A DNA stretch of 64,000 nt, from positions 187,617-251,616 of the forward strand of contig JAFKKH010000012.1 in assembly GCA_017305665.1 (NCBI GenBank), read 5' to 3'. The stretch is from Hyphomicrobiales bacterium. GTDB lineage: Bacteria; Pseudomonadota; Alphaproteobacteria; Rhizobiales; Xanthobacteraceae. The position numbers and the translations under genes were made by a program. Below the pieces are notes generated by a model, which worked only from the letters and a program-made list of their open reading frames with translations, was not told the origin of the DNA and searched no databases. Position 1 is the stretch's first letter. Each line of letters starts with the position of its first letter. Shown one piece after another: positions 48,914 through 64,000 of the stretch.

Positions 48914-50452
48914 CTAGAGGCCGAGTCGCTGAATCTTGTGCGTCCCTCGGGCGAGAGAGACGTGCTTGGTTTCCATATAGAACTCGAACGAGTAGTCGCC
49001 GCCGTCGCGGCCGATGCCCGACGCCTTCATGCCGCCGAACGGAGTCGGCAGGTGGCGGACGTTTTCCGAATTCAGCCAGATCATGCCGGCTTCCAGCGCA
49101 TCGGCGACGCGCAGCGCACGGCCCATGTCGCCGGTCCAGACATAGCCGGTGAGGCCGTAGCGCACGGAATTGGCGATCTCGATGGCGTCGGTCTCGTCCT
49201 TGAACGGAATGACCGTGAGGAAAGGTCCGAACACCTCATCCTGCGCGACCCGCATGTCGGCGCGCGCGCCGGTGACAAGCGTCGGCTGCACGTAGTGTCC
49301 GCCGCCGGGGCCGTCATACGGCTTGCCGCCGACGGCAACCGTCGCGCCGTCCTTCCGGGCCACGTCGAAATAGGAGCAGACCTTGTCGAGGTGGCGCTCA
49401 TGGATCAGCGGGCCGACTTCCGTGGCGGGATCGAGGGGATGACCAACCTTAAGTGCTTTTACGCGTGCCGTGAGCTTTTCGATGAATTTGTCCGCGACGC
49501 TGCTCTGGATCAGGAGTCGGCTCGATGACGTGCAGCGCTCGCCGTTCAGCGAGTAGATCATGAACACAACGGCATCGAGCGCGCGGTCGAGATCGGCGTC
49601 GTCGAACACGATCACCGGATTCTTGCCGCCGAGCTCGAAGTGCACGCGCTTCAGGGTCGGTGCGCCCTGCGCCATGATCGCGGCGCCGGTCGCGGTTTCG
49701 CCGACAAAGGCGATCGCCTTGATCGCGGGATGTTCGGTCAGCGCCTTACCGGCTTCCTCGCCAAAGCCGTGCACGGTGTTGAGCACCCCGTCGGGGACAC
49801 CGGCTTCCTTCACCAGTTTGGCGAGGAGGTCGGCCGTCACCGGCGACCATTCCGCCGGCTTGTGCACGACGGTGCAGCCGGCGGCGAGTGCCGGCGCGAT
49901 CTTCCAGGTCGACAGCATGAACGGCGTGTTCCACGGCGTGATGACGCCGACCGGGCCGATCGGCACCCGCGTCGAAACATTCCAGTGTTCGTCGCTCGGA
50001 GTATTGAGACCGTCCCGCGCCTCGGTGCACTTGTCGGCGAAGAAGCGGAAGTTTTCCGCTGCGCGGATCGCGGCCTTGGCCATGAAGCGATACGCCTGTC
50101 CGGTGTCGATGCATTCAAGCACGGCGATGTCGTCGGCGCGCGCCTCGATGGCGTCGGCGACGCGATGCAGCAGCTTCTTGCGCTTCGCCGCCGGCATATC
50201 GCGCCAGGCGGGGAAAGCGCGCTGTGCCGCTTTGGCGGCGTGGTCGATATCGTTGGCGTTGCCCCGTGCGACATAGGCCAGCACGCTGTTGTCGATGGGA
50301 GAGGCGGTATCGAAGGTTTCTCCGGACGAGGCGGGAACGGTTTCGCCGCCGATCATGTGGCCGATGCCATCGGCCTTGAGCTGTTTCAGAAGCGGTGCGG
50401 CGCGATCGCGGTTCGCTTGAAAGACGTCGGGTTTGGGTGTGGCCTTATCCAT
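48914..50452 (-). CDS. hpaE: 5-carboxymethyl-2-hydroxymuconate semialdehyde dehydrogenase
   Basis: ITPWNTPFML, FVGET, ELGGKNP, NGERCT, RHLPTPFGG; hpa context. Confidence 0.92.
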   Translation of the reverse strand: MDKATPKPDVFQANRDRAAPLLKQLKADGIGHMIGGETVPASSGETFDTASPIDNSVLAYVARGNANDIDHAAKAAQRAFPAWRDMPAAKRKKLLHRVADAIEARADDIAVLECIDTGQAYRFMAKAAIRAAENFRFFADKCTEARDGLNTPSDEHWNVSTRVPIGPVGVITPWNTPFMLSTWKIAPALAAGCTVVHKPAEWSPVTADLLAKLVKEAGVPDGVLNTVHGFGEEAGKALTEHPAIKAIAFVGETATGAAIMAQGAPTLKRVHFELGGKNPVIVFDDADLDRALDAVVFMIYSLNGERCTSSSRLLIQSSVADKFIEKLTARVKALKVGHPLDPATEVGPLIHERHLDKVCSYFDVARKDGATVAVGGKPYDGPGGGHYVQPTLVTGARADMRVAQDEVFGPFLTVIPFKDETDAIEIANSVRYGLTGYVWTGDMGRALRVADALEAGMIWLNSENVRHLPTPFGGMKASGIGRDGGDYSFEFYMETKHVSLARGTHKIQRLGL

Positions 50453-51839: not shown

Positions 51840-52412
51840 ATGGGTCTGAAGACACCTGCAAGGGACGGCGCCGCGAACCGGACAAGCGAATCCGCATCTG
51901 CTGCCGGCCGCAAGATGAGCGCTGGGCAGGCGCCGATGCGCGAGTTTTCGCGCTCGCTGCCGATGTCCCTGATGCGCGCGCGGGAAGCGGTGATGCGGCA
52001 TTTCCGCCCGTCACTGCGGGCGCACGGGCTCACCGAGCAGCAATGGCGTATCCTGCGGGCACTGTCGTCGATCGACGCCATCGAGGTGACTGATCTTGCC
52101 CACGTCGCCTTCCTGCTGGGGCCGAGCTTGTCGCGAATCCTTCGCGATCTCGAAGGACGGCGCCTGATCGAGCGCAAAACCGTGAAATCCGATCTACGCC
52201 GCGGCACCGTTTCGATCACGGCGAAGGGCCTGAAGCTGATCGAGGCGGTGGCGCCGCACTCCGAGGCGATCTATGCCGAGATGACCCGGCGCTATGGCGC
52301 GCAGAAACTGGCCGAACTTCAGGACATGCTGCATATGCTGGAAAACAGCCTGCTGGCGATGCCCGTTCGCGGCGGTTCTGGCGATGCCGATGAGGGCGAC
52401 GACGGAAAGTAG
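51840..52412 (+). CDS. hpaR: Homoprotocatechuate operon regulator (MarR family); start uncertain
   Basis: SLPMSLMRAREAVM, GLTEQQWRILR, PSLSRIL; divergent from hpaH. Confidence 0.9.
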   Translation: MGLKTPARDGAANRTSESASAAGRKMSAGQAPMREFSRSLPMSLMRAREAVMRHFRPSLRAHGLTEQQWRILRALSSIDAIEVTDLAHVAFLLGPSLSRILRDLEGRRLIERKTVKSDLRRGTVSITAKGLKLIEAVAPHSEAIYAEMTRRYGAQKLAELQDMLHMLENSLLAMPVRGGSGDADEGDDGK

Positions 52413-52626
52413 CGGCAAAATTGCATGATGGTGCGGATCGTTGCCAATGCAGCGCATAGCGGGCGCCGGAATCTGCGCAACCTGGTGCGGCCGACCTCAG
52501 AGGCCATAGACACGCCTGCATTTTTTCGCTCAAACTGGCCGGCATAACAATATCGGGCGGCCACGCTCGGTTTCGCTCCGCCAGTCCAGGCGGCAGCAGT
52601 AAAAATCACGGGATGAACGTTCGGTC

Positions 52627-53712
52627 ATGGTGACAATTCAGGTTCAGAAGCTGATCGATTTCGTCGCGGACGTTTTCGTTCATACCGGCTCGTCCGCTGC
52701 CGAAGCCAAGCGGATTGCAACCTATCTCACGACCGCCAATCTCACCGGGCACGACAGCCATGGCGTGATCCGGGTGCCGACCTATGTGCGGCACCAGAAG
52801 GTTGGCAACGTTTTTCCCGATCAGACCGTCGATGTGGTCGTCGATACGCCATCGCTCGCCGTTGTCGACGGCAAATACGGTTTTGGCCAGACCGTGGGAC
52901 CGCAGGCGGTCCGCATCGGTATCGACAAGTGCAAGAAGGTTGGTCTCGCGGCGGTCGCGCTGCGCAACGCCGGGCACATCGGCCGCATCGGCGACTGGGC
53001 CGAGATGGCCGCGGCCGAAGGGCTGGTATCGATCCATTTCGTCAATGCCGCCGGCTCAATTCTGGTCGCGCCCTTTGGCGGCACTGAGCGGCGGCTCTCG
53101 ACCGCGCCGTACTGCGTCGGCATTCCGCGTAAAGGGCAGGGGCCGATCGTGCTGGATTTCGCCACCTCGATCGTCGCCGAGGGCAAGGTGCTGGTCGCGA
53201 GCCGCGGCGGCAAGAAACTGCCGAAGGGCGCGCTGGTTAATCTTGACGGTACGCTGACCGAAGACCCGACCGCCCTCTACGGCCCGCACACCGCCGATGG
53301 CCCGCGCGACCATTCGCAGGGCAAGGGCGCGATCCGCGCGTTCGGCGAGCATAAGGGCTCGGGGCTTGCGCTGATCTGCGAACTGCTCGGCGGCGCGCTG
53401 ACGGGCACCGGCGCGACCTCGATGCCGCGCCGTTTCGCCAATGGCATGTTTGCGATCTATGTCGATCCCGCCGTGGTCGATCCGGCCAATTTCTTCGATG
53501 GCGAGATCGCCCGCTACATCACCTATTTCAAGGACACCAAGACGGTCGCCGGCATCGACGAGGTTCTGGTGCCCGGCGAACCGGAAGCGCGGACGCGCGC
53601 CGAGCGGACCAGGAACGGCGTGCCGCTGCCGGACGAAACCTGGGCGGCGATCGTCAACACGGCGCGCGAGGTCGGCGTGAGCGAGGCAAAGATTCAAAGC
53701 GTTGGGAACTAA
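52627..53712 (+). CDS. Ldh_2-family (malate/lactate/ureidoglycolate) dehydrogenase, YbiC/HcxB-like
   Basis: GHDSHG, GHIGRIG, LDFATS, HKGSGL, PGEPE. Confidence 0.85.
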   Translation: MVTIQVQKLIDFVADVFVHTGSSAAEAKRIATYLTTANLTGHDSHGVIRVPTYVRHQKVGNVFPDQTVDVVVDTPSLAVVDGKYGFGQTVGPQAVRIGIDKCKKVGLAAVALRNAGHIGRIGDWAEMAAAEGLVSIHFVNAAGSILVAPFGGTERRLSTAPYCVGIPRKGQGPIVLDFATSIVAEGKVLVASRGGKKLPKGALVNLDGTLTEDPTALYGPHTADGPRDHSQGKGAIRAFGEHKGSGLALICELLGGALTGTGATSMPRRFANGMFAIYVDPAVVDPANFFDGEIARYITYFKDTKTVAGIDEVLVPGEPEARTRAERTRNGVPLPDETWAAIVNTAREVGVSEAKIQSVGN

Positions 53713-53755
53713 CAAGCCTGACGGCTTGGTTGAAATTCAAAAGAAGGGTCCAAGA

Positions 53756-54532
53756 ATGCCAAACAAGGTCAAGGAAATCTGGAAGTCCGGTAAGGCCGTC
53801 GTCAACGGATGGCTCGCAATTCCGTCGGGATTCTCCGCCGAAGTCATCGCGCAGTGCGGCTTCGACAGCGTCACCGTGGACATGCAGCACGGCGTGCAGG
53901 ACTATCAGTCGATGGTGCAATGCTTCCAGGCGATGCACGGCCATCCGGTGACGCCGATGGTTCGCGTGCCCTGGAACGAACCTGGCATCGTCGGCAAGGT
54001 GCTCGATGGCGGCGCCTACGGTGTGATCTGCCCGATGATCAATACGCCGCAGGAAGCAAAGAATTTGGTGCAGTACGCGAAGTATCCGCCGAAGGGGACG
54101 CGCTCCAACGGTCCGATCCGTTCCGGCATGTACGGCTCGGCTGGCTCCTACCAGCAGACGGCAAACGATGAGATCGTGCTGCTGCCGATGATGGAGACCA
54201 AGACCGCGGTCGAGAACATGGAAGCTATTCTCGATGTCGAAGGCATCGATGGTGTCTATATCGGGCCGTCCGATCTCGGCTTTTCGTATGGTCTCGTGCC
54301 GAAGCTGGATCGCGAGGAGCCGGAAATCCTGAAGATCTACGACAAGATCATCAAGGAGTGCGACAAGCGCAAGCTGTATCCGGGCATCCATTGCTCGGGC
54401 CCGGTCGGCGCCGCCAAGAACATCGGCATGGGCTTCAAACTGGTGACGCTTGCCAACGACAGCGGCATCATGGCGACCGCGGCCCGGCAGTGGATCGACC
54501 AGACGCGCAAGGATTCCAAGGGTAAGGCGTAA
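53756..54532 (+). CDS. HpcH/HpaI-family aldolase (probable 4-hydroxy-2-oxoheptanedioate aldolase)
   Basis: DMQHG, VRVP, PMMET, YIGPSDL; near the hpa cluster. Confidence 0.8.
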   Translation: MPNKVKEIWKSGKAVVNGWLAIPSGFSAEVIAQCGFDSVTVDMQHGVQDYQSMVQCFQAMHGHPVTPMVRVPWNEPGIVGKVLDGGAYGVICPMINTPQEAKNLVQYAKYPPKGTRSNGPIRSGMYGSAGSYQQTANDEIVLLPMMETKTAVENMEAILDVEGIDGVYIGPSDLGFSYGLVPKLDREEPEILKIYDKIIKECDKRKLYPGIHCSGPVGAAKNIGMGFKLVTLANDSGIMATAARQWIDQTRKDSKGKA

Positions 54533-54551
54533 GCCGGTTAACGGGGCGGTT

Positions 54552-54639
54552 CGTCATGCCCGGGCTTGTCCCGGGCACCCACGTCTTTCTTGTGATAGAA
54601 GGTAAGACGTGGATGGCCGGAACAGGTTCGGCCATGACG
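54552..54639. repeat. CGTC-tagged REP-like element, family B
   Basis: CGTCATGCCCGGGCTTGTCCCGGGCA-CCCACGTCTT...AAGACGTGGATGGCCGG...GGCCATGACG. Confidence 0.88.
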
Positions 54640-54680
54640 CAAAAGTTTCTTACGTTGTAAGAGCGTTGGAGATTCCGACC

Positions 54681-56204
54681 ATGGCTCCGTCCCCTGTGAT
54701 CCGGCTTCATCCCGATGATGGCGTGCTGATCGCGCGCACCACACTGATGCCGGGTGTCGCCGTCACCGACGGCGTGACAACCACCGACCGCATTCCCGCC
54801 GGGCACAAGGTCGCGATCCGCGCCATCGCCGTGGGCGAACCGATCCGGCGCTACGGGCAGATCATCGGCTTCGCGACCGCGCCGATCGCGCCCGGCCAGC
54901 ACGTGCACACGCAGAACTGCGGCATGGGCGACTTTGCCCGCGATTATGCCTATGGCGTGGACGTGCAACCGACGCCGAATTTCGATCTGCCGGCAACATT
55001 CATGGGCATCCGTCGCGACGACGGTCGTGTCGCGACGCGCAACTATATCGGTATTCTCACTTCGGTGAATTGCAGCGCTCACGTGGCCAGCATGGTCGCC
55101 GATGTCTTCAAGAAGAATCCGTTTACCGGCGACAATCCGCTGGCGGATTTCCCCAATGTCGATGGCGTGGTCGCGCTGACGCACAAGACCGGCTGCGGCA
55201 TGACGCAGAACGAGCCACTCACGCTGCTTCGGCGCACGCTTGGCGGTTATGCGCGTCACGTCAACTTCTCCACCGTCGTGGTGCTCGGCTTGGGCTGCGA
55301 GATCAACCAGATCGGCGGCTTGATGAAGGAACAGAAACTCGCCGGCCGTCTGCGCGAAATGGAAATCCAGGAGATGGGCGGCACGCGCAAGACCACGGAG
55401 GCCGGCGTTGCCTTCGTCAAGGAAGCACTCGTGGACGCCAACAAGGTCAAGCGCGAGGAAGTGTCGGCGAGCCATCTCACCGTGGCACTGCAATGCGGTG
55501 GATCGGACGGCTATTCTGGCATCTCGGCCAATCCCGCGCTCGGCGCGGCGAGCGATCTGCTCGTGCGTCACGGCGGCACCGTCATTCTATCTGAAACGCC
55601 GGAAACCTATGGCGCCGAGCATCTTCTCACGCGTCGCGCGGTCAGCCGCGAGGTCGGCGAGAAGCTGGTCGGGCTGATGCGCTGGTGGGAAGCCTATTGC
55701 GAGCGCGAGGGCGCCGAGATGAATGCCAACCCGAGCCCCGGCAACAAGGCCGGTGGTCTCACCACCATTCTGGAAAAATCGCTCGGCGCCATGGCCAAGG
55801 CTGGCAGCACCAACCTCGTCGATGTAGTGAACTATGCCGAAGCCGTCACCAAGAAGGGTTTCGTGTTCATGGATACGCCGGGCTACGACCCCGTCGCGGC
55901 CACGGGGCAGGTCGCTGGCGGCGCCAACATGGTGTGCTTCACTACCGGCCGCGGCAGCGTGTTCGGCTGCAAGCCTGCGCCCTCGATCAAGCTTGCCACC
56001 AACACGCCGATGTATCGCCGCATGGAAGACGACATGGATATCAACTGCGGCACGATTCTGGACGGCGACGAGACTGTGCAGGACTGCGGCCAGCGCATCT
56101 TCAACCTGATGCTGGAAACCGCATCGGGCAAGCCGACCAAGAGCGAAAGCTTCGATTTCGGCGGCGCCGAGTTCGCGCCCTGGGTGCTCGGCGCGACCAT
56201 GTGA
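54681..56204 (+). CDS. UxaA/GarD-family acid-sugar dehydratase with N-terminal SAF domain
   Basis: IPAGHKVA, RYGQIIG, HTQN, TSVNCS, LQCGGSD, NPSPGNKAGG, FTTGRGS; start MAPSP at 54681. Confidence 0.88.
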   Translation: MAPSPVIRLHPDDGVLIARTTLMPGVAVTDGVTTTDRIPAGHKVAIRAIAVGEPIRRYGQIIGFATAPIAPGQHVHTQNCGMGDFARDYAYGVDVQPTPNFDLPATFMGIRRDDGRVATRNYIGILTSVNCSAHVASMVADVFKKNPFTGDNPLADFPNVDGVVALTHKTGCGMTQNEPLTLLRRTLGGYARHVNFSTVVVLGLGCEINQIGGLMKEQKLAGRLREMEIQEMGGTRKTTEAGVAFVKEALVDANKVKREEVSASHLTVALQCGGSDGYSGISANPALGAASDLLVRHGGTVILSETPETYGAEHLLTRRAVSREVGEKLVGLMRWWEAYCEREGAEMNANPSPGNKAGGLTTILEKSLGAMAKAGSTNLVDVVNYAEAVTKKGFVFMDTPGYDPVAATGQVAGGANMVCFTTGRGSVFGCKPAPSIKLATNTPMYRRMEDDMDINCGTILDGDETVQDCGQRIFNLMLETASGKPTKSESFDFGGAEFAPWVLGATM

Positions 56205-56210
56205 TAGCGC

Positions 56211-56234
56211 GCGTCGCCTGGTGAGCGACGCTTT
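56211..56234 (+). terminator. Possible intrinsic terminator after the dehydratase
   Basis: GCGTCGC-N7-GCGACGC followed by TTT. Confidence 0.4.
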
Positions 56235-56300
56235 GGGCGCGGATGTTGCGTCGTTTGCCGATCGGCCTGACAATGTATGCAGGTCGAGCCCGGAGCCGCC

Positions 56301-57683
56301 ATGACCTATCGCCATGTCATCGATCGTCATGCTTATATCTTTGACGATCTGCGGGCGTTGCTGGCCAAGGCAACGCCGCTCCGTTCGGGCGACCGTCTCG
56401 CCGGCGTGGCCGCCGGGAGCGCCGAGGAGATGGTCGCAGCGCGGATGGCGCTCGCCGACATTCCGCTAAAACAGTTTCTGCAAGAAGTTGTCGTTCCCTA
56501 CGAGAGCGACGAGGTCACCCGGCTCATCATCGATACCCATGACGCGACGGCATTTGCTCCCGTCGCAGCGCTGACCGTCGGCGCGTTTCGCGATTGGTTG
56601 CTATCGGATGCCGCGACACCTGATGTGCTGAAGGCGCTCGCGCCCGGAATCACGCCGGAAATGGCCGCGGCCGTCTCGAAACTGATGCGCAATCAGGATC
56701 TGATTCTGGTTGCCAAAAAGTGCGGCGTCGTGACCCGGTTTCGCAACACCATCGGGCTGACTGGCCGGATGAGCACCCGGCTGCAGCCCAACCATCCTCT
56801 GGATGACCGCAAGGGAATTTTCGCCTCGATCCTTGACGGATTGCTGTTGGGGTCTGGTGATGCCTGCATCGGCGTCAATCCCGCGAGCGACGATCCGGCG
56901 GTGCTGGGCGATCTGGTCCGGCTGCTCGACGATATCATCGCGCGGCTGGCCATCCCGACGCAGAGCTGCGTGCTGACACACGTCACGACCACTCTCGATT
57001 TGATCGGGAAAGGCTGTCCGGTCGATCTGGTGTTTCAGTCGATTGCCGGCACGGAAGCGGCCAACCGCAGCTTTGGCGTCGAACTCACGATCCTGAAGGA
57101 AGCTCGCGACGCCGGCCTGTCGCTGCGGCGGGGCACGGTCGGAAACAACGTGATGTATTTCGAGACCGGGCAGGGCTCCGCGCTGTCGGCGAACGCGCAT
57201 CATGGCGTCGACCAGCAGACCTGCGAGGCCAGGGCCTATGCGGTGGCGCGCGCTTTCGATCCGCTGTTGGTCAATAGCGTCGTCGGCTTCATCGGTCCGG
57301 AATATCTGTATGACGGCAAGGAGATCATCCGCGCCGGGCTTGAGGACCATTTCTGCGGCAAGCTGCTCGGTCTGCCGCTCGGTGTCGATGTCTGCTACAC
57401 CAACCATGCCGCGGCTGATCAGGACGATATGGACAACCTGCTGACGCTGCTGGCGGCTGCCGGCGTCACGTTCGTCATGGGAGTGCCCGGCGCCGATGAC
57501 GTGATGCTGAACTATCAATCGACGTCATATCACGACGCGCTCTATGTCCGCGAACTGTTCGGTCTCGCGCGTGCGCCGGAGTTCGACGATTGGCTGCACC
57601 GCTCGGGTCTCGCGGACGCGGGTTTCCGGCTTACCGGGCAGAACAATTTGCTCCCGGATTTTGCGGCCCGCATGATCGAATAG
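56301..57683 (+). CDS. eutB: Ethanolamine ammonia-lyase large subunit
   Basis: RSGDRLAG, RLQPNHP, YFETGQGS, VVGFIGPEYL, GVDVCYTNH, LNYQSTS; RBS GGAG before 56301. Confidence 0.96.
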   Translation: MTYRHVIDRHAYIFDDLRALLAKATPLRSGDRLAGVAAGSAEEMVAARMALADIPLKQFLQEVVVPYESDEVTRLIIDTHDATAFAPVAALTVGAFRDWLLSDAATPDVLKALAPGITPEMAAAVSKLMRNQDLILVAKKCGVVTRFRNTIGLTGRMSTRLQPNHPLDDRKGIFASILDGLLLGSGDACIGVNPASDDPAVLGDLVRLLDDIIARLAIPTQSCVLTHVTTTLDLIGKGCPVDLVFQSIAGTEAANRSFGVELTILKEARDAGLSLRRGTVGNNVMYFETGQGSALSANAHHGVDQQTCEARAYAVARAFDPLLVNSVVGFIGPEYLYDGKEIIRAGLEDHFCGKLLGLPLGVDVCYTNHAAADQDDMDNLLTLLAAAGVTFVMGVPGADDVMLNYQSTSYHDALYVRELFGLARAPEFDDWLHRSGLADAGFRLTGQNNLLPDFAARMIE

Positions 57684-57817
57684 CAAACGGGGCATAATCC
57701 CACGATGCGTTTTGTCGCAATGCCGTCATGTCGGCGGCATCTTCGCGCCTTTTGCCACAATGTTGAGGAAATTGTAGCCCAACTTTTTTGACCATGCTTT
57801 AGTGGTTCGCGCGATCT

Positions 57818-57842
57818 GGAACGATTGCGAGCGCCAACGGTT
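57818..57842 (+). promoter_or_regulatory. EcfG (general stress sigma) type promoter of hpnP
   Basis: GGAAC(57818-22)-N16-GGTT(57839-42), i.e. GGAAC-N18-TT, ~45 bp before the hpnP start; hpnP is known to be EcfG-controlled in R. palustris. Confidence 0.7.
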
Positions 57843-57861
57843 TTGGAAGTGTTTCGGTTCC

Positions 57862-57875
57862 GTGTAAGTTTACAC
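57862..57875. promoter_or_regulatory. Palindrome between the hpnP promoter and RBS
   Basis: GTGTAA-GT-TTACAC; same GTAA-N2-TTAC core as 60365-60376. Confidence 0.4.
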
Positions 57876-57886
57876 ATGGAGGTGCG

Positions 57887-59470
57887 ATGAGGGGCGTGGG
57901 TCAATACGGTGTTCGGCGCATTCTTTGCGTATTTCCCCGCTACACGTCGTCGTTCGGCACGTTCGAGTATGCCTATCCTCTGACTGCTGGTGTGCAGGCG
58001 TTCATGCCGCCGCAGGGACTTCTGGTCATTGCGGCCTATCTGCCGGCCGATTGGAAGGTTCGCTTCATCGACGAGAATATTCGCGCGGCCACGGACGAGG
58101 ATTTCGCGTGGGCGGAAGCCGTGCTTGTCAGTGGCATGCACATCCAGCGCCAGCAGATGAACGACATCTGCAACCGCGCTCATGCTTTCAACCTTCCCGT
58201 TGCGATCGGTGGCCCCTCGGTCAGCGCCTGTCCGGACTACTATCCGTCGTTCGACTATCTTCACGTCGGCGAACTCGGCGATGCCACCGACGAATTGATC
58301 GCGCGGCTGGCGCGCGATCCCTCGCGTCCGGCTCGTCAGATCGTGCTCACCACCGCCGACCGGCTGGACATGGACAAGTTTCCGATCCCTGCCTACGAGC
58401 TTGCCGACATCAGCCATTATTTTCTCGGCAGCATCCAGTATTCCAGCGGCTGCCCATACCAGTGTGAATTCTGCGATATTCCAGGTCTCTACGGACGCAA
58501 TCCGCGCCTCAAGACACCTGAACAGATCACGCGCGAGCTCGACAAGCTGCTGGAGTGCGGAATTTCCGGCTCGGTCTATTTTGTCGACGATAACTTCATC
58601 GGCAATCGCAAGGCGGCACTGGATCTCCTGCCGCATTTGGTCGAGTGGCAGAAAAAGACCGGCTATGTGCTGCGCTTTTCCTGCGAGGCGACGCTGAATA
58701 TCGCAAAGCGCCCGGAAATCCTGGAGAAGATGCGCGAAGCCTTCTTCGCCACCATCTTCTGCGGTATCGAGACGCCGGATCCAGTCGCGCTGAAAGCGAT
58801 GCACAAGGATCACAACATGATGGTTCCCATCATGGAAGCGATCAAGACGTTGAACGACTTTGGCATGGAGGTCGTGTCGGGAATCATCCTCGGGCTCGAT
58901 ACCGACAAGCCGGAAACCGGAAGCCATCTGCTCAATTTCATCGATCAGTCGCAGATTCCGCTTCTGACCATCAATCTGCTGCAGGCTTTGCCGAAGACAC
59001 CATTGTGGGACCGCCTGAAGCGCGAAAACCGTCTGATCGAAGACGAGGATCGTGATTCCAACGTCGATTTCCGACTGCCTTACGAGCAGGTGGTGACGAC
59101 GTGGCGCAATTGCATGGGAAGCGCCTACCAGCCCGACAAACTGCTCGAGCGCTTCGAATACCAGATCCGCAATACCTATCCGAACCGGATTCAGCCGCGC
59201 ACCCGGGAGCAGATGTCATGGCGCTATATCAAGCTCGGGCTGACCATGCTGCGCAATATTATCTGGAAGGTCGGCGTGCGCGGTGACTACAAGCGCGCGT
59301 TCTGGGCATTTGCGCTGCGGCGGCTCATGCGGGGCGAGATCGAATATCTCATCAGTTCGATCATGGTGGCGCATCACCTGATCATGTTCGCGCGCTCGGC
59401 CTCGCGCGGCAAAACCAATGCTTCCTACTACTCCCTGAAATTGCAGCAGGCATCCGTTCCCGCCGAATAG
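57887..59470 (+). CDS. hpnP: Hopanoid C-2 methylase (cobalamin-binding class B radical SAM)
   Basis: [33 protein letters not shown] (CxxxCxxC), FVDDNFIGN; strongly resembles R. palustris HpnP as I recall it; RBS GGAGG. Confidence 0.9.
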
Positions 59471-59483
59471 GCGAGAGGCAACC

Positions 59484-60260
59484 ATGCAGACGCAACCGCC
59501 GGGCCGACCGATCGACGACCTGCGCCGCCTGACGCCGGCGCGCGTCGGGCTCGGCCGCGTGGGCGCCGGATTGCCTACGCAGGCGCTGCTGGCGTTCACG
59601 CTCGACCATGCGCGGGCACGTGACGCCGTTCATGCGCCATTCGATTCGGCTGGAGTTCTCGCGGCGATGCAAGCGCTCGGGCTCAGAACCTTCGAGGTTT
59701 CGAGCCGTGCCGGGAGTCGCGACCAGTATCTGCGGCGTCCCGATCTCGGACGACAACTCGACGAGCCGTCGCGGCAGACGTTGCAAGGACAGGTCAGCGA
59801 CAATGCGGCGAAGGTGGTCGTTGTGGTCGGCGACGGCCTTTCGCCGGCAGCGGTCAATACCCATGCGGTGGAATTGGTCCGTCATCTGGTTCCGAAGCTT
59901 GCAACGGAGGGCCTCGAACCGGCTACAGCGGTGGTGGCGTCCGGTGCGCGAGTCGCTTTGGGCGATGAGATCGGTGCGCTGCTTGGGGCGCGTCTCGTGG
60001 TCGTATTGATCGGTGAACGGCCCGGCTTGTCGGCGCCGCAAAGTCTTGGCGCCTATCTGACGTTTGCGCCGAGGCCGGGACTGACCGACGCGGATCGCAA
60101 CTGCATTTCGAACATCCATGCCGCAGGTCTTGGTTATGACGAAGCGTCGACCAAAATCGCCTGGCTGTGTCGCGAGGCCTTGGCGCGTGGGCGTTCGGGT
60201 GTCGGCTTGAAAGACGAAAGCGGCCTGCAATCGGTGGCATCGCTCTTGCCGCCGTCGTGA
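59484..60260 (+). CDS. eutC: Ethanolamine ammonia-lyase small subunit
   Basis: [48 protein letters not shown]. Confidence 0.95.
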
Positions 60261-60364
60261 GGCGACACGTGTTCCCGGTATTTCATTTTGGCGTGAGCGA
60301 TACGGAACGCGCATAATTTGCCCCGGCTTGCGATCTACCGTGGAAACGGGTACACCCTTTGCGT

Positions 60365-60376
60365 CGTAAATTTACG
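60365..60376. promoter_or_regulatory. Perfect palindrome upstream of the MMPL gene
   Basis: CGTAAATTTACG, ~105 bp before the start. Confidence 0.4.
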
Positions 60377-60480
60377 CGTGTTTTCAAGGACTAATGCGGG
60401 TTGCCAGCCGGTTCCGGGCGTCGCTCCAAAGCCCTGCGGAAATCTGCTAGACGATAACCTCACCACGGAATGGACAGGGC

Positions 60481-62847
60481 ATGCTTGAGCGAAACCCGGA
60501 CGCTGCCGATCTGACCGCCCCGGTCAAACGGTCGCCCAGCATCGCCTTCGGGCTCGAGCGGATCGGACTGATTGCGGTCCGCGCGCCGATCCTGTCCTGC
60601 ATCATCCTGCTCGCCATGGTGATCGGCGCGGTATTCGGCATCCACCGCATCAAGATCGACGATTCGCTCAGCCAGCTCTTTCGCTCCGACACCAAGGAGT
60701 ATCATCAGTACGAGGAGGTGACGAAGCGCTTCCCGTCGACGGAGTTCGACGTGCTGGTCGTGGTCGAGGGCAAGACGCTGCTCGAGCGCAACAACCTCGA
60801 AAAGCTGCGCGACATGGTCACCGATCTGCAGCTGATCGACGGTGTGCGCGGGCTGATCTCGCTGTTCTCGGCACGTCAGGCGCCGGAGCCCGGCAAGCTG
60901 CCGGCAGCGCTGTTTCCGTCCGATCTGCCGAAAGGAGCGGACTACGACAAATTCATCGAAACCGTGAAGTCCAACGAGATCATTCGCGGAAAATTGTTGT
61001 CCGATGACGGTACGCTAGCCCTGGTCGTGCTGTCGCTGGAGCCATCCATCGTCGGCGACAGCAGGCTGAATACGGCCATCACGCAGATCCGCAAGGTCAT
61101 GAACGACGATCTTGCCGGCTCCGGGCTTACCAAGGAACTGTCCGGTGTACCGGTGATGCAGCTCGAAATCCGCAACGCGGTGGAGCGCGACGGCATCATC
61201 TATAACGTGGCCGGTATTCTGGCCGGCTGTCTGATCGCGATCGTGTTCTTCCGACGGGTGTCCTTCATGGTTGTCGCGGCGTTCCCGCCGCTGCTCGCGA
61301 TCCTGCTGGCCCTGGGTGTGCTGGGCTGGGCCAACTTCAGCCTCAACATGTTCCTCAACGTGATGACACCGCTCATCATGGTCATCAGTTTCTCCGATTC
61401 CATGCAGTTGACGTTCGCTGCGCGCGATCGCCTGATCGCCGGTGAGGACAAATACACCGCATTCCGTAACGCGGTTCTGGTGGTCGGCCCCGCCTGTGTA
61501 CTGACCCATGCGACCGCTGGAATTTCGTTCATCGCGCTGCAGTTCTCGAACTCGGATCTGATCCGCAGTTTCGGCGAGGCGGGGCTGCTGGCGACCGTGA
61601 TCGCGCTGCTCGCGGTGTTGTCGCTGGTGCCGGTGTTCGGCGTTCTGCTGGTCCGTCATGAAGAGCGCTTCGCCCAGAAATTCAAAACATCGGATGCCGG
61701 GGTGCAGGCGCTCCGCCGCTTCTGCGCCTGGATCGCGGAACGGATGGTGGGGCATCCCGGCTTCTTCAGTTTGCTGGCGCTCGTCGTGGTCGGCGGCTTG
61801 GCGGTGGTCTATGCCAACCTCGAGCCGCGTTACCGGCTGGCCGATCAGGTGCCCGACAAGCAGCAGGCAGTTGCGGCGAGCGGACGCCTCGATGCAAAGT
61901 TGACAGGCGCCAATCCGATCGACGTCTTGATCGAATTCCCCAAAGGCGAAACGCTGTATTCGCCGCAGACGCTTGCCGTCATCGCGGCGGTTCACAAACT
62001 GGTCGAGGAGCAGGCGGGCGTCGGCAACGTCTGGTCGCTGGAAACCCTTCGCCGCTGGCTGGCTGAAAAGGCCCACACCGACGACGTTGCGACGCTCAAG
62101 GAGTATGTCAGCGTCATTCCAAAGCATCTGGTTCGCCGCTTCATCTCCAAAGATCAGACCGCGGTCGTGGTCTCGGGTCGTGTGCCCGATAAGGATTCCA
62201 GCCAGATCCTGCCCGTGGTCGACAAACTCGATCACGCCATGGGTGCCGTCCGGAAGGCGCATCCCGGCTATGAAATCGCCGTCACCGGTCTCTCGGCGAT
62301 CGCTGCGCGCAACAGCGCCAGCATGATCGAAAAGCTGAATCACGGCCTTACGATCGAGTTCGCGCTGGTTGCGATCTTCATCGGACTGGCCTTCCGTTCC
62401 GTCGTCGTGATGTTCGCCTGCATCTTGCCCGGCATCTTCCCGGTCGTGCTGTCCGGTACGGTGCTGTGGGCGTTGGGGGAGGGGCTGCAGTTTGCCTCCG
62501 TCGTGGCGCTCACCGTCTCGTTCGGGCTTGGGCTCAGTGCAACCATCCACTTCCTCAATCGTCTGCGATCCGAAAGCAAACCGGGCGTCGGCGCGGGCGA
62601 AGCGGTCGAACGTGCGACCGTACTGATGGGGCCGGCGCTGATCCTCACCACGGTGGTGCTGGCATGCGGTCTGGTGGTGACGGTGTTCTCGGACCTGCCG
62701 TCGCTGCGCCTGTTCGGCTGGCTCAGCGCCTTCGCCATGGTTGCCGCGCTGGTCGCCGACTTCCTGATCCTGCGTCCGACGGCGATGTGGCTGATTACGT
62801 TTGCCGAGCGGTTACGCGGCGGCAAACAGGCAAAAGCCGCGAAATAG
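60481..62847 (+). CDS. MMPL/RND-family lipid transporter (HpnN-related, shorter paralog type)
   Basis: Duplicated TM + periplasmic loop + 5 TM architecture, LSGVPVM, VTGLSAI, PSLRLFG; adjacent to hpnP. Confidence 0.88.
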   Translation: MLERNPDAADLTAPVKRSPSIAFGLERIGLIAVRAPILSCIILLAMVIGAVFGIHRIKIDDSLSQLFRSDTKEYHQYEEVTKRFPSTEFDVLVVVEGKTLLERNNLEKLRDMVTDLQLIDGVRGLISLFSARQAPEPGKLPAALFPSDLPKGADYDKFIETVKSNEIIRGKLLSDDGTLALVVLSLEPSIVGDSRLNTAITQIRKVMNDDLAGSGLTKELSGVPVMQLEIRNAVERDGIIYNVAGILAGCLIAIVFFRRVSFMVVAAFPPLLAILLALGVLGWANFSLNMFLNVMTPLIMVISFSDSMQLTFAARDRLIAGEDKYTAFRNAVLVVGPACVLTHATAGISFIALQFSNSDLIRSFGEAGLLATVIALLAVLSLVPVFGVLLVRHEERFAQKFKTSDAGVQALRRFCAWIAERMVGHPGFFSLLALVVVGGLAVVYANLEPRYRLADQVPDKQQAVAASGRLDAKLTGANPIDVLIEFPKGETLYSPQTLAVIAAVHKLVEEQAGVGNVWSLETLRRWLAEKAHTDDVATLKEYVSVIPKHLVRRFISKDQTAVVVSGRVPDKDSSQILPVVDKLDHAMGAVRKAHPGYEIAVTGLSAIAARNSASMIEKLNHGLTIEFALVAIFIGLAFRSVVVMFACILPGIFPVVLSGTVLWALGEGLQFASVVALTVSFGLGLSATIHFLNRLRSESKPGVGAGEAVERATVLMGPALILTTVVLACGLVVTVFSDLPSLRLFGWLSAFAMVAALVADFLILRPTAMWLITFAERLRGGKQAKAAK

Positions 62848-62949
62848 AAGTCGCAACCGCCGCGCTGATGTCGCGGCCCGGCCGCAACACGCAAATGCCC
62901 GGCGTGAGGCCGAGCGTGACGATTCAAATCGAATTTTATTCAGTTGCCA

Positions 62950-63048
62950 TAGCGTTTTCGAGCGAAGTGGAGTTCGCGTGAAGAAAACGCGTCAGATCAA
63001 AATCATAGAGTTCCGCTTCTGATTCCATCAGAAACGGAATAGCTCTAG
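62950..63048. repeat. Composite palindromic element, family E (CTAG-ended), degenerate
   Basis: TAGCGTTTTCGAGCGAAGTGG...GTTCGCGTGAAGAAAACGCGTCA module plus TAGAG-TTCCG-CTTCTGAT-TCC-ATCAGAA-ACGGAA-TAG-CTCTA hairpin; I recognise this as a common bradyrhizobial repeat. Confidence 0.7.
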
Positions 63049-63545
63049 CTGCGAACCATCGTGATGGAGACGCCGCGGATTTCACCCTTCGAGGTGATGG
63101 AGACCGATTGCTTGTTGCCATTTGCGCGCACCGTCAGGTTCGCGGCGAAGCCCGCAGCTTCCACGAATACCTGAATCTCGCCGCCGCCGGCGCGGCCGCG
63201 CACGGAGCCGAAGACGTTGCGGCTCGCTTCGCTCCAGTTGCCGGTGATTTCGTCGCCTTCGCTGACGACATCGCTCGAGAGGTCGAATTTGTAGCTGTCG
63301 CTGGCGCAGCGCAGCGATTGCTTGAGGCCTTTACCTGTGCCGTCTACCTTGTAGGAGGCCCTGCACCGGATGTTCTCCTTCGACCCGTCGGATAGCGCGA
63401 CCGTGCCGCTTCCCGACCAGTTTCCGGCAAAGCCGGCGAACGGAGACGATTGCGCGTAACTCGCGGATGCGGACAATGCGACGCCTGCGACAAAGCCGGC
63501 TACCATCATCGTCTTCCGAACCAGTTTGGAGGCAAACAGTTTCAT
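63045..63545 (-). CDS. Conserved hypothetical secreted beta-strand-rich protein
   Basis: Signal peptide ending ASYA, then FAGNWSGSG, IRCRA, LRCASDSYKF, GNWSE; two Cys; coding-like codon usage; alternative start 63563. Confidence 0.75.
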   Translation of the reverse strand: MKLFASKLVRKTMMVAGFVAGVALSASASYAQSSPFAGFAGNWSGSGTVALSDGSKENIRCRASYKVDGTGKGLKQSLRCASDSYKFDLSSDVVSEGDEITGNWSEASRNVFGSVRGRAGGGEIQVFVEAAGFAANLTVRANGNKQSVSITSKGEIRGVSITMVRS

Positions 63546-64000
63546 ATCCGATTTTCCCATCAAAATGATATTCTAGGTAATGACCCTTCGCGGCGCATCA
63601 AGCTTTTAGTCTTGTTGTGCATCGCGAGGTTCAATGTTGGCAGCATGGTTGGTGCCTCTTACATCGAATCGTCCTGCTCCTGCCTCCGTCACTGCGATGA
63701 AATTATCATCAAAGCGCATAAAGTATGTTTGACAGGCCGGTGCCACGCGGGTCCATGGATGGAACACCCGCGGCGCCCTTTTCACCGAAGTATTAGTCAA
63801 TATATTTCAGTTGGTTAGCGAGCCTCCTCGGAAAAACATCTGAGGCCCTCGAACCAACTTGTTCGCCGTCGTAAATTTGGCCGCATTTGCCAGTGCTTTT
63901 GGCCGTTGTGGAATACCGGATCTGCTGGTGCACCAAGACATTGGTCATGTTGACAGCGGCCGGTACTGACCGCATCCGATGGGGTGAGGCGTAAAGTGTG

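Follow-up and report, generated by a model that had tools for sequence, protein, structure and literature searches.

Why should the gene for a membrane-lipid methylase lie between the two genes that encode the subunits of a single, seemingly unrelated enzyme? The question is raised by a 64-kb stretch of DNA from a Hyphomicrobiales bacterium (contig JAFKKH010000012.1; hereafter the window, with coordinates counted from its first nucleotide). Here hpnP, encoding a cobalamin-dependent radical SAM hopanoid C-2 methylase, separates eutB and eutC, which encode the large and small subunits of the adenosylcobalamin (AdoCbl)-dependent ethanolamine ammonia-lyase. The explanation we favour, with moderate confidence, is that one old insertion of hpnP turned eutBC into a nested operon whose enzymes are independent of each other and whose gene order is historically frozen. 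This reading rests on the gene identities, the single origin and conservation of the arrangement, purifying selection, the joint loss of the eut genes, promoter motifs and tight gene spacing; how the genes are transcribed, and that no adaptive coupling exists, is what we infer from them.

The interrupted ethanolamine ammonia-lyase genes

All genes of the locus lie on the plus strand. eutB (56301-57683) is followed by a gap of 203 nt (57684-57886), hpnP (57887-59470, an open reading frame (ORF) of 527 aa), a spacer of 13 nt (59471-59483) carrying the Shine-Dalgarno sequence GAGAGG at 59473-59478, and a short-form eutC (59484-60260). The next gene encodes an MMPL/HAE3-type RND transporter of 788 aa (60481-62847; PF03176). 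The ORF coordinates agree exactly with the order and the two gap lengths given in the initial annotation of the locus. The eutB frame is open from 56277, and its start was set at 56301 because relatives align from about residue 6-9 of the longer ORF. With hpnP included, 1800 nt separate eutB from eutC, and the adjacency that marks a canonical eutBC operon is thus lacking.

By sequence, EutB, HpnP and EutC are nevertheless all canonical members of their families. EutB matches the Pfam profile PF06751 with 708.7 bits over model positions 1-433 of 435 and NF011649 with 702.2 bits (cutoff 554), and aligns over its full length with the Listeria and E. coli enzymes (PDB 2QEZ and 3ABO). In a HMMER alignment to 3ABO_A, EutB is identical at all six of R160, Q162, N193, E287, D362 and M392 (E. 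coli numbering), which we take to be the substrate-binding residues described in the 3ABO literature. EutC scores 300.9 bits against PF05985 and 314.3 bits against NF003971 (cutoff 230). Its residues 10-242 align with 78-304 of 3ABO_B, the E. coli chain, and, because the alignment begins only at residue 78 of that chain, the protein lacks the N-terminal extension that targets the subunit to microcompartments.

The protein encoded between them contains B12-binding (PF02310), Radical_SAM (PF04055) and DUF4070 (PF13282) domains in a Pfam scan, together with a CPYQCEFC cluster motif (CxxxCxxC) and a GMHIQ motif. Its counterparts in Nitrobacter, Bradyrhizobium, Tardiphaga and Rhodopseudomonas, several labelled 'hopanoid C-2 methylase' by JGI, share 79-95% identity with it, and a Methylobacterium protein shares 58%, with HpnP-like paralogues at no more than 37%. 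We accept it as HpnP, a putative producer of 2-methylhopanoids. A recent horizontal transfer of hpnP, which a local dip in G+C content (0.55-0.58 vs 0.63) might suggest, was considered and rejected: at third codon positions hpnP has a G+C content of 0.75, nearly the same as eutB (0.76) and higher than eutC (0.70), and the insertion is ancient.

The Pfam scan of the 50 large ORFs of the window detected no eutA, eat or amino-acid permease, microcompartment shell or regulator gene, in keeping with what had been claimed for eutA, eat and the microcompartment. None of the hallmarks of a long, microcompartment-type eut operon (shell proteins, eutA, eutE and a EutC targeting peptide) is found among these ORFs. 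The accompanying claim that the region has no aldehyde dehydrogenase needs to be narrowed, as one, the only one among these ORFs, is encoded at 48914-50452 (minus strand). This gene belongs to a homoprotocatechuate-type aromatic-catabolism cluster that also encodes a dioxygenase and an FAA hydrolase, away from the eut genes, and the claim stands insofar as no aldehyde dehydrogenase is associated with eut.

A single origin of the split

The genomic comparison comprised 80 species-representative genome loci encoding the closest relatives of the window's HpnP, all from Nitrobacteraceae or from relatives without names. About 52 of the 80 share the order eutB-hpnP-eutC-MMPL, and loci that seem to have one eut gene only proved to be contig ends or frameshifted long-read assemblies. 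Among metagenome contigs whose EutC is at least 58% identical, hpnP lies directly upstream of eutC in 21 of 21 loci; this count takes in two loci (L097 and L103) that the classification script left unclassified and whose coordinates were read by hand. At more distant EutC loci in metagenomes, eutB and eutC are adjacent and neither hpnP nor an MMPL gene is nearby, in all 51 that could be classified.

On a tree of 129 EutC sequences the split state corresponds to one change (SH-aLRT 95.9). Because it maps to a single branch, the split is best explained by a single insertion inherited vertically, and the comparison indicates that this was one old event common to the whole Bradyrhizobium/Nitrobacter family. 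The survey of hpnP synteny proposed in the initial annotation thus speaks against a sporadic insertion: the origin is single, and the order is kept across the family in about 52 of 80 genome loci and in the 21 metagenome loci.

Beyond the family, hpnP has a different setting. In Methylobacterium bullatum (locus L085, 4558-15491, NZ_LR743510.1), hpnP and a gene for a GntR-aminotransferase regulator are found between rplA and rplJ-(rplL)-rpoB, and no eut or MMPL gene lies within 8 kb of it. The presence of hpnP at another site in Methylobacterium argues against a general functional link between hpnP and eut. The gene has been placed between normally adjacent genes at least twice (eutBC and rplA/rplJ), a pattern consistent with horizontal acquisition of hpnP and its settlement in intergenic spacers. 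The cluster interrupted in M. bullatum, of ribosomal-protein and RNA-polymerase genes, is otherwise highly conserved.

Joint loss of eutB and eutC

On the HpnP tree, eutB and eutC were lost jointly at least four times, with hpnP and the MMPL transporter gene retained. The lineages concerned are classical Nitrobacter (sister to the window and its closest relative, L001), an 11-species group in which GarD abuts hpnP, the single locus L019, and the trio L032, L041 and L043. A 37-residue remnant of eutB is left in L060. In L032, L041 and L043, the HI0933-like gene that lies 5' of eutB in sister genomes now stands directly against hpnP, which implies that eutB and eutC were removed by two separate deletions sparing hpnP. 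Among the loci fully covered by their contigs, none retains an intact copy of one eut gene without the other. The joint losses show that EutB and EutC still function only as a pair, and that hpnP and the transporter gene are selected independently of a lyase that is unneeded for the retention of hpnP. Where the genes are present they are maintained: median dN/dS (ratio of nonsynonymous to synonymous substitution rates) values from 15-17 sister pairs are 0.074 for eutB, 0.058 for hpnP, 0.18 for eutC and 0.061 for the transporter gene, and values this low imply that all four genes encode functional proteins under purifying selection. The comparison as a whole shows a partnership of hpnP with eutBC that is real, old and family-wide, yet dispensable, and that is absent from Methylobacterium, the sole HpnP lineage checked outside the family.

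These losses bear on the idea that the genes share a cobalamin economy, in which EutBC and HpnP are kept together for co-expression when B12 is available or, in a stronger form, EutC loads or holds cobalamin for HpnP. Both enzymes are cobalamin-dependent according to their domain matches, and a common mRNA is probably the template for translation of both hpnP and eutC (see below). Classical Nitrobacter and three other lineages nevertheless have hpnP without eutC, and the Methylobacterium hpnP has no eut neighbour. No cobalamin riboswitch was found in 52000-64000, and no gene for B12 transport, an adenosyltransferase or a reactivase is among the 50 large ORFs of the window. We consider a cobalamin-based explanation very unlikely.

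Promoters and gene spacing

The hpnP gene is predicted to have conserved promoters of its own, one sigma-70-like and one EcfG-type. A conserved element upstream of hpnP (57754-57803, plus strand; GCCACAATGTTGAGGAAATTGTAGCCCAAC) is an imperfect inverted repeat overlapping the sigma-70-like promoter. The promoter elements predicted from the sequence pattern of the window are a -35 hexamer TTGTAG (57772-57777) and, after a spacer of 17 nt, an extended -10 TGcTTTAGT (57795-57803). In an alignment of the 80 hpnP upstream regions, the block GCCACAAT-N8-ATTTGTAGCCCAGC (window 57754-57783) is near-universal across relatives, the extended -10 reads TGnTTAACT, and the block is kept whether eutB, GarD or another gene precedes hpnP. 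The inverted repeat GCCACAAT-N8-ATTTGTGGC, followed by CCAGC, is strongly conserved across the whole family, being seen at 57754-57783 and, in about 70 loci, at the corresponding position. Besides forming part of the promoter, the repeat could be the operator for a regulator.

The EcfG-type motif GGAAC-N16-GGTT occupies 57818-57842 (plus strand) and begins 69 nt 5' of the start codon of hpnP. It is the single plus-strand match in the window, where about 0.9 would be expected, and alone it is not significant. Its recurrence is more telling: 20 of the 80 loci have the strict motif GGAAC-N16/17-(C/G)GTT upstream of hpnP (0.0011 expected per region), and 41 have a relaxed form in which GCAAC is allowed (0.007 expected per region). 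Two classes of position were found, one at -50 to -84 (window, Nitrobacter, Tardiphaga) and one at -110 to -139 (Bradyrhizobium). The promoter motif that had been noted in the gap between eutB and hpnP is thus confirmed, both in its location and by its enrichment at this position across relatives. EcfG reportedly controls hpnP in R. palustris (Kulkarni et al. 2013, J Bacteriol 195:2490, cited in PMC4620461). A minus-strand GGAAC-N17-CGTT (57861-57836) overlaps the hpnP motif but is directed back towards eutB; as L001 does not conserve it, it was dismissed as a probable chance match.

On the other side of hpnP there is very little space. The spacer between hpnP and eutC, compared in about 50 loci, is most commonly 6 nt (range 3-54 nt), and the eutC ribosome-binding site often lies within the final hpnP codons. 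Such tight spacing leaves no room for a eutC promoter, and eutC is probably translationally coupled to hpnP. In one Bradyrhizobium metagenome-assembled genome (MAG; locus L073, 6500-6620), the hpnP stop codon is replaced by TCA and the spacer is in frame, resulting in a single 789-codon hpnP-eutC ORF, although this is one case and a sequencing error is possible. HpnP-EutC fusions as a Rosetta-stone link between the proteins were discarded: three 'fusions' in the database (P0121-P0123) are out-of-frame junk from frameshifted assemblies, and L073 is the lone in-frame case.

The search for signals that would end transcription was negative. There is no terminator or significant structure after eutB, where the predicted fold is no better than that of shuffled sequence, and no terminator or structured RNA was found after eutC. 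The region 5' of eutB (window 56230-56300; also, for example, L026, L053 and L054) has, just ahead of the ribosome-binding site, a conserved TGnTAGnnT resembling an extended -10, along with a small GC-rich hairpin in the leader. These leader elements occur in most Bradyrhizobium-type loci regardless of the upstream gene, and the leader may be regulatory.

Transcripts and the proposed stress gating

Three root/rhizosphere metatranscriptomes contained short contigs, from related Bradyrhizobium strains, covering eutB, hpnP and eutC of locus L055. The hpnP-eutC junction (L055 6539-6698) is spanned by two contigs of the X25 root metatranscriptome, which weakly supports co-transcription of hpnP and eutC. 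Separate transcripts of eutB and hpnP would fit this pattern but are not proved by it, at a coverage that is few-fold, from divergent strains and with DNA carry-over possible.

Taken with the promoter predictions, these observations fit into a simple scheme. The single ancient insertion of hpnP would have split eutBC and created a nested operon beside the probable hopanoid transporter gene and the hpnCDE-shc island. In this operon eutB would retain its own promoter, and hpnP would be driven by the conserved sigma-70-like promoter and the EcfG-type promoter. The promoterless eutC would be carried on any transcript crossing hpnP, to which readthrough from eutB may contribute, so that eutC is presumably made whenever hpnP is. 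EutB and EutC would still assemble into a normal AdoCbl lyase for ethanolamine catabolism, and HpnP would methylate hopanoids independently of it. Since surplus EutC without EutB would be inert, lyase activity is more likely limited by the expression of eutB than gated by stress. The gene order would persist because moving either gene would orphan eutC from the hpnP transcript.

Several observations weigh against this historical explanation. Even at 80% likeness, no contig of the three metatranscriptomes covers L055 4774-4875, which comprises the 3' end of eutB and the start of the intergenic region. Without readthrough, eutC would depend wholly on the hpnP promoters, making the idea of gating more plausible. 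The window's own organism was matched in DNA metagenomes only, the transcripts coming from related strains. Finally, an adaptive coupling at the level of regulation would equally account for a strict family-wide gene order in which every gene is under selection.

The most developed form of such a coupling is the one put forward in the initial annotation, in which transcription of eutB stops before hpnP and EutC comes solely from an EcfG-dependent hpnP promoter. Active lyase would then form only under general stress, coupling the catabolism of ethanolamine from phosphatidylethanolamine (PE) to 2-methylhopanoid remodelling of the membrane. An EcfG-type motif precedes hpnP both in the window and in no fewer than half of its relatives, which speaks for this, as do the lack of promoter space before eutC, a gene order kept through the clade's entire history, and RNA contigs that cross the hpnP-eutC junction with none crossing the gap between eutB and hpnP in the three metatranscriptomes. 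That RNA coverage is, however, very thin; it derives from divergent strains, and DNA may be part of it. Neither a terminator nor significant structure was found after eutB, the conserved sigma-70-like promoter means that hpnP-eutC need not be stress-only, and at least four losses of eutBC left hpnP unchanged. Thus, the proposal that eutC is co-transcribed with hpnP from a stress promoter holds in part: the two RNA contigs across the junction, the tight spacer and the EcfG-type motif are in its favour, but the stress promoter is accompanied by a sigma-70-like one. Its second half, that transcription of eutC bypasses eutB, finds no support, as nothing shows eutB transcription ending before hpnP. 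We regard stress gating as unlikely, though it is the most serious competitor to a frozen insertion. Still less probable, in our estimate, is an adaptive split in which a stress-driven hpnP-eutC transcript supplies limiting EutC, and the lyase is active only during envelope remodelling, recycling PE ethanolamine while 2-methylhopanoids are made. Overall, the comparative results favour a historical linkage over a functional tie between ethanolamine turnover and 2-methylhopanoids, and they lend no backing to stress-gated assembly of the lyase or to a connection through lipids or B12 handling.

The hopanoid island and its transporter

The locus lies in a wider hopanoid context. In the close relative L083 the gene order is Ldh_2 - HpcH - GarD - (MCP) - eutB - hpnP - eutC - MMPL - a gene for 166 aa (minus strand) - a gene for 79 aa - hpnC - hpnD - hpnE - shc. 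The window has the same genes through a minus-strand gene for 172 aa and stops shortly before the expected hpnC. Because its order follows that of L083, where hpnC-hpnD-hpnE-shc come next, the eut genes lie embedded at the edge of a hopanoid island. An FAD-type (flavin adenine dinucleotide) oxidoreductase gene upstream of eutB was considered as an ancestral neighbour in common with Agrobacterium vitis and ruled out, as the two proteins are unrelated.

The transporter gene was found in 71 of the 80 loci, the unmatched ones being cases where the contig ends ahead of its expected position, and in every case it follows eutC or, where eutC has been lost, hpnP. The sole PDB matches of its product are Burkholderia HpnN structures (5KHN and 6WU0), and these are weak (E 1e-4). 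Against the NCBIfam HpnN models the protein scores 72.1 bits (TIGR03480, cutoff 751.85) and 24.1 bits (NF052374, cutoff 1100), far below what assignment to HpnN would take, and it fits at the HAE3/MMPL superfamily level only. Given its setting, the 788-aa MMPL protein is probably the hopanoid transporter of this bacterial family.

This neighbourhood is what recommends a further explanation, that the lyase was recruited to lipid chemistry and acts on an ethanolamine-like head group. Aminobacteriohopanetriol bears a vicinal amino alcohol, and its terminal CH(OH)-CH2-NH2, or else a PE-derived compound, would be the substrate; the eut genes do lie among hpnP, the transporter of the hopanoid island and hpnCDE-shc. 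EutB, however, scores above its curated cutoff and retains all six of the E. coli substrate-binding residues listed above, the closest outgroup eutBC loci are ordinary and without hopanoid neighbours, and eutBC is dispensable in lineages that possess the hopanoid island. We give this the least credence of the alternatives and think it highly improbable.

The transporter gene has a predicted promoter and 5' leader of its own at 60327-60397 (plus strand), with a -35 CTTGCG, a -10 aligning with the TGCTACA of relatives and the conserved block GTAAATTTACGCGTGTTTTCAAGGACTAATGC. In an alignment of the regions upstream of MMPL, these promoter and leader blocks are the same in loci with and without eutC. 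In most loci the leader block at 60366-60397, 3' of the CTTGCG...TGCTACA promoter, reads AAATTTACCGCATGTTTTCAAGGGCTAGCGC. The sequence GTAANNTTAC occurs exactly twice in the 64 kb (0.03 expected), at 57864-57873 in the hpnP leader and at 60366-60375 in the transporter leader. The latter copy is part of the block conserved across the family, whereas the copy in the hpnP leader lacks conservation even in L001, the closest relative.

Downstream of the transporter gene, the 172-aa protein encoded at 63045-63563 (minus strand) has a signal-peptide-like N-terminus and no Pfam match. Its gene is kept between the transporter gene and hpnC (166 aa in L081 and L083), and it may be an uncharacterised hopanoid-island gene. 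An assignment of this secreted protein as HpnT was rejected, since HpnT is a DUF2147 protein (bll3009) and the 172-aa protein has no Pfam match. In the metagenome that is the probable source, contig depth is about 15 times higher over a short element at 62950-63050 (GTTTTCGAGCGAAGTGGAGTTCGCGTGAAGAAAACGCGTCA...), similar copies of which are found in other intergenic regions of the Nitrobacter group (L002 and L013); the element is probably a dispersed repeat. Further upstream, a long perfect hairpin at 54552-54639, between the HpcH aldolase and GarD genes, produced spurious microRNA matches, below threshold, on either strand; it is probably a terminator or a REP-like (repetitive extragenic palindromic) palindrome.

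Implications

2-Methylhopanoids are major geological biomarkers with an unclear cellular role, and a gene partnership conserved around hpnP might hint at that role. Were the split adaptive, the 2-methylhopanoid response, so long unexplained, would gain its first physiological partner. On the evidence above, the association of hpnP with eutBC is best seen as a historical insertion that has a side effect on regulation, and the locus as a clean natural case of a two-subunit enzyme operon that survived being split by a foreign gene. The side effect matters for work on R. palustris and Bradyrhizobium: polar hpnP mutations or changes to the hpnP promoter are predicted to alter the expression of eutC and hence the use of ethanolamine, for which hpnP phenotypes need a control.

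In open-access literature, a scope that leaves the key R. palustris papers outside, no paper was found to discuss the eutB-hpnP-eutC arrangement or to name hpnP alongside eutB or eutC, and recent papers on hopanoid synteny and phylogeny do not mention it. Two papers that name both hopanoids and ethanolamine ammonia-lyase are, by their titles, on unrelated subjects (a Zymomonas metabolic network and a Komagataeibacter genome). A review of B12 enzymes names hpnP and ethanolamine ammonia-lyase separately. As far as checked, the arrangement is visible in published genomes yet uninterpreted. In Bradyrhizobium diazoefficiens USDA 110, hpnP is blr2995 and hpnCDEFG are blr3001-3005, in a paper that makes no mention of ethanolamine or eut genes (PMC4620461). 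From the spacing of the locus tags, we infer that eutB would be blr2994, eutC blr2996 and the transporter gene blr2997.

Comparison with known systems

The nearest parallels to the window's lyase genes are short proteobacterial eutBC loci without microcompartment genes, such as those of Acinetobacter baumannii (PMC9426561) and the pAt plasmid of Agrobacterium vitis (L086). Like them, the window encodes a canonical EutB and EutC, the latter of the short form, with conserved active-site residues and without shell genes. The two genes are, however, adjacent in A. baumannii and A. vitis (the gap in A. vitis is 11 nt), whereas in the window a 1.6-kb unrelated gene with predicted promoters of its own stands between them. 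The window also differs in having, among its 50 ORFs, neither an eat permease nor a regulator near the eut genes.

For hpnP the closest reference is the gene of R. palustris TIE-1, which probably belongs to the orthologous gene family, comes from the same bacterial family and is likewise preceded by GGAAC-N16-GGTT. In a Rhodopseudomonas-labelled MAG locus (L067), eutB lies directly upstream of hpnP, as in the window. Unlike R. palustris TIE-1, the window comes from an uncultured Nitrobacter-like organism, and EcfG control of its hpnP is a prediction from the motif alone. The hpnP of USDA 110 lies a few genes upstream of hpnC-shc (PMC4620461), matching the order in the relative L083. The transporter invites comparison with Burkholderia HpnN (5KHN and 6WU0), which is also an RND/MMPL-type inner-membrane transporter encoded beside hopanoid synthesis genes; the window protein is shorter (788 vs ~880 aa), shows very weak similarity to it and falls outside the curated HpnN families.

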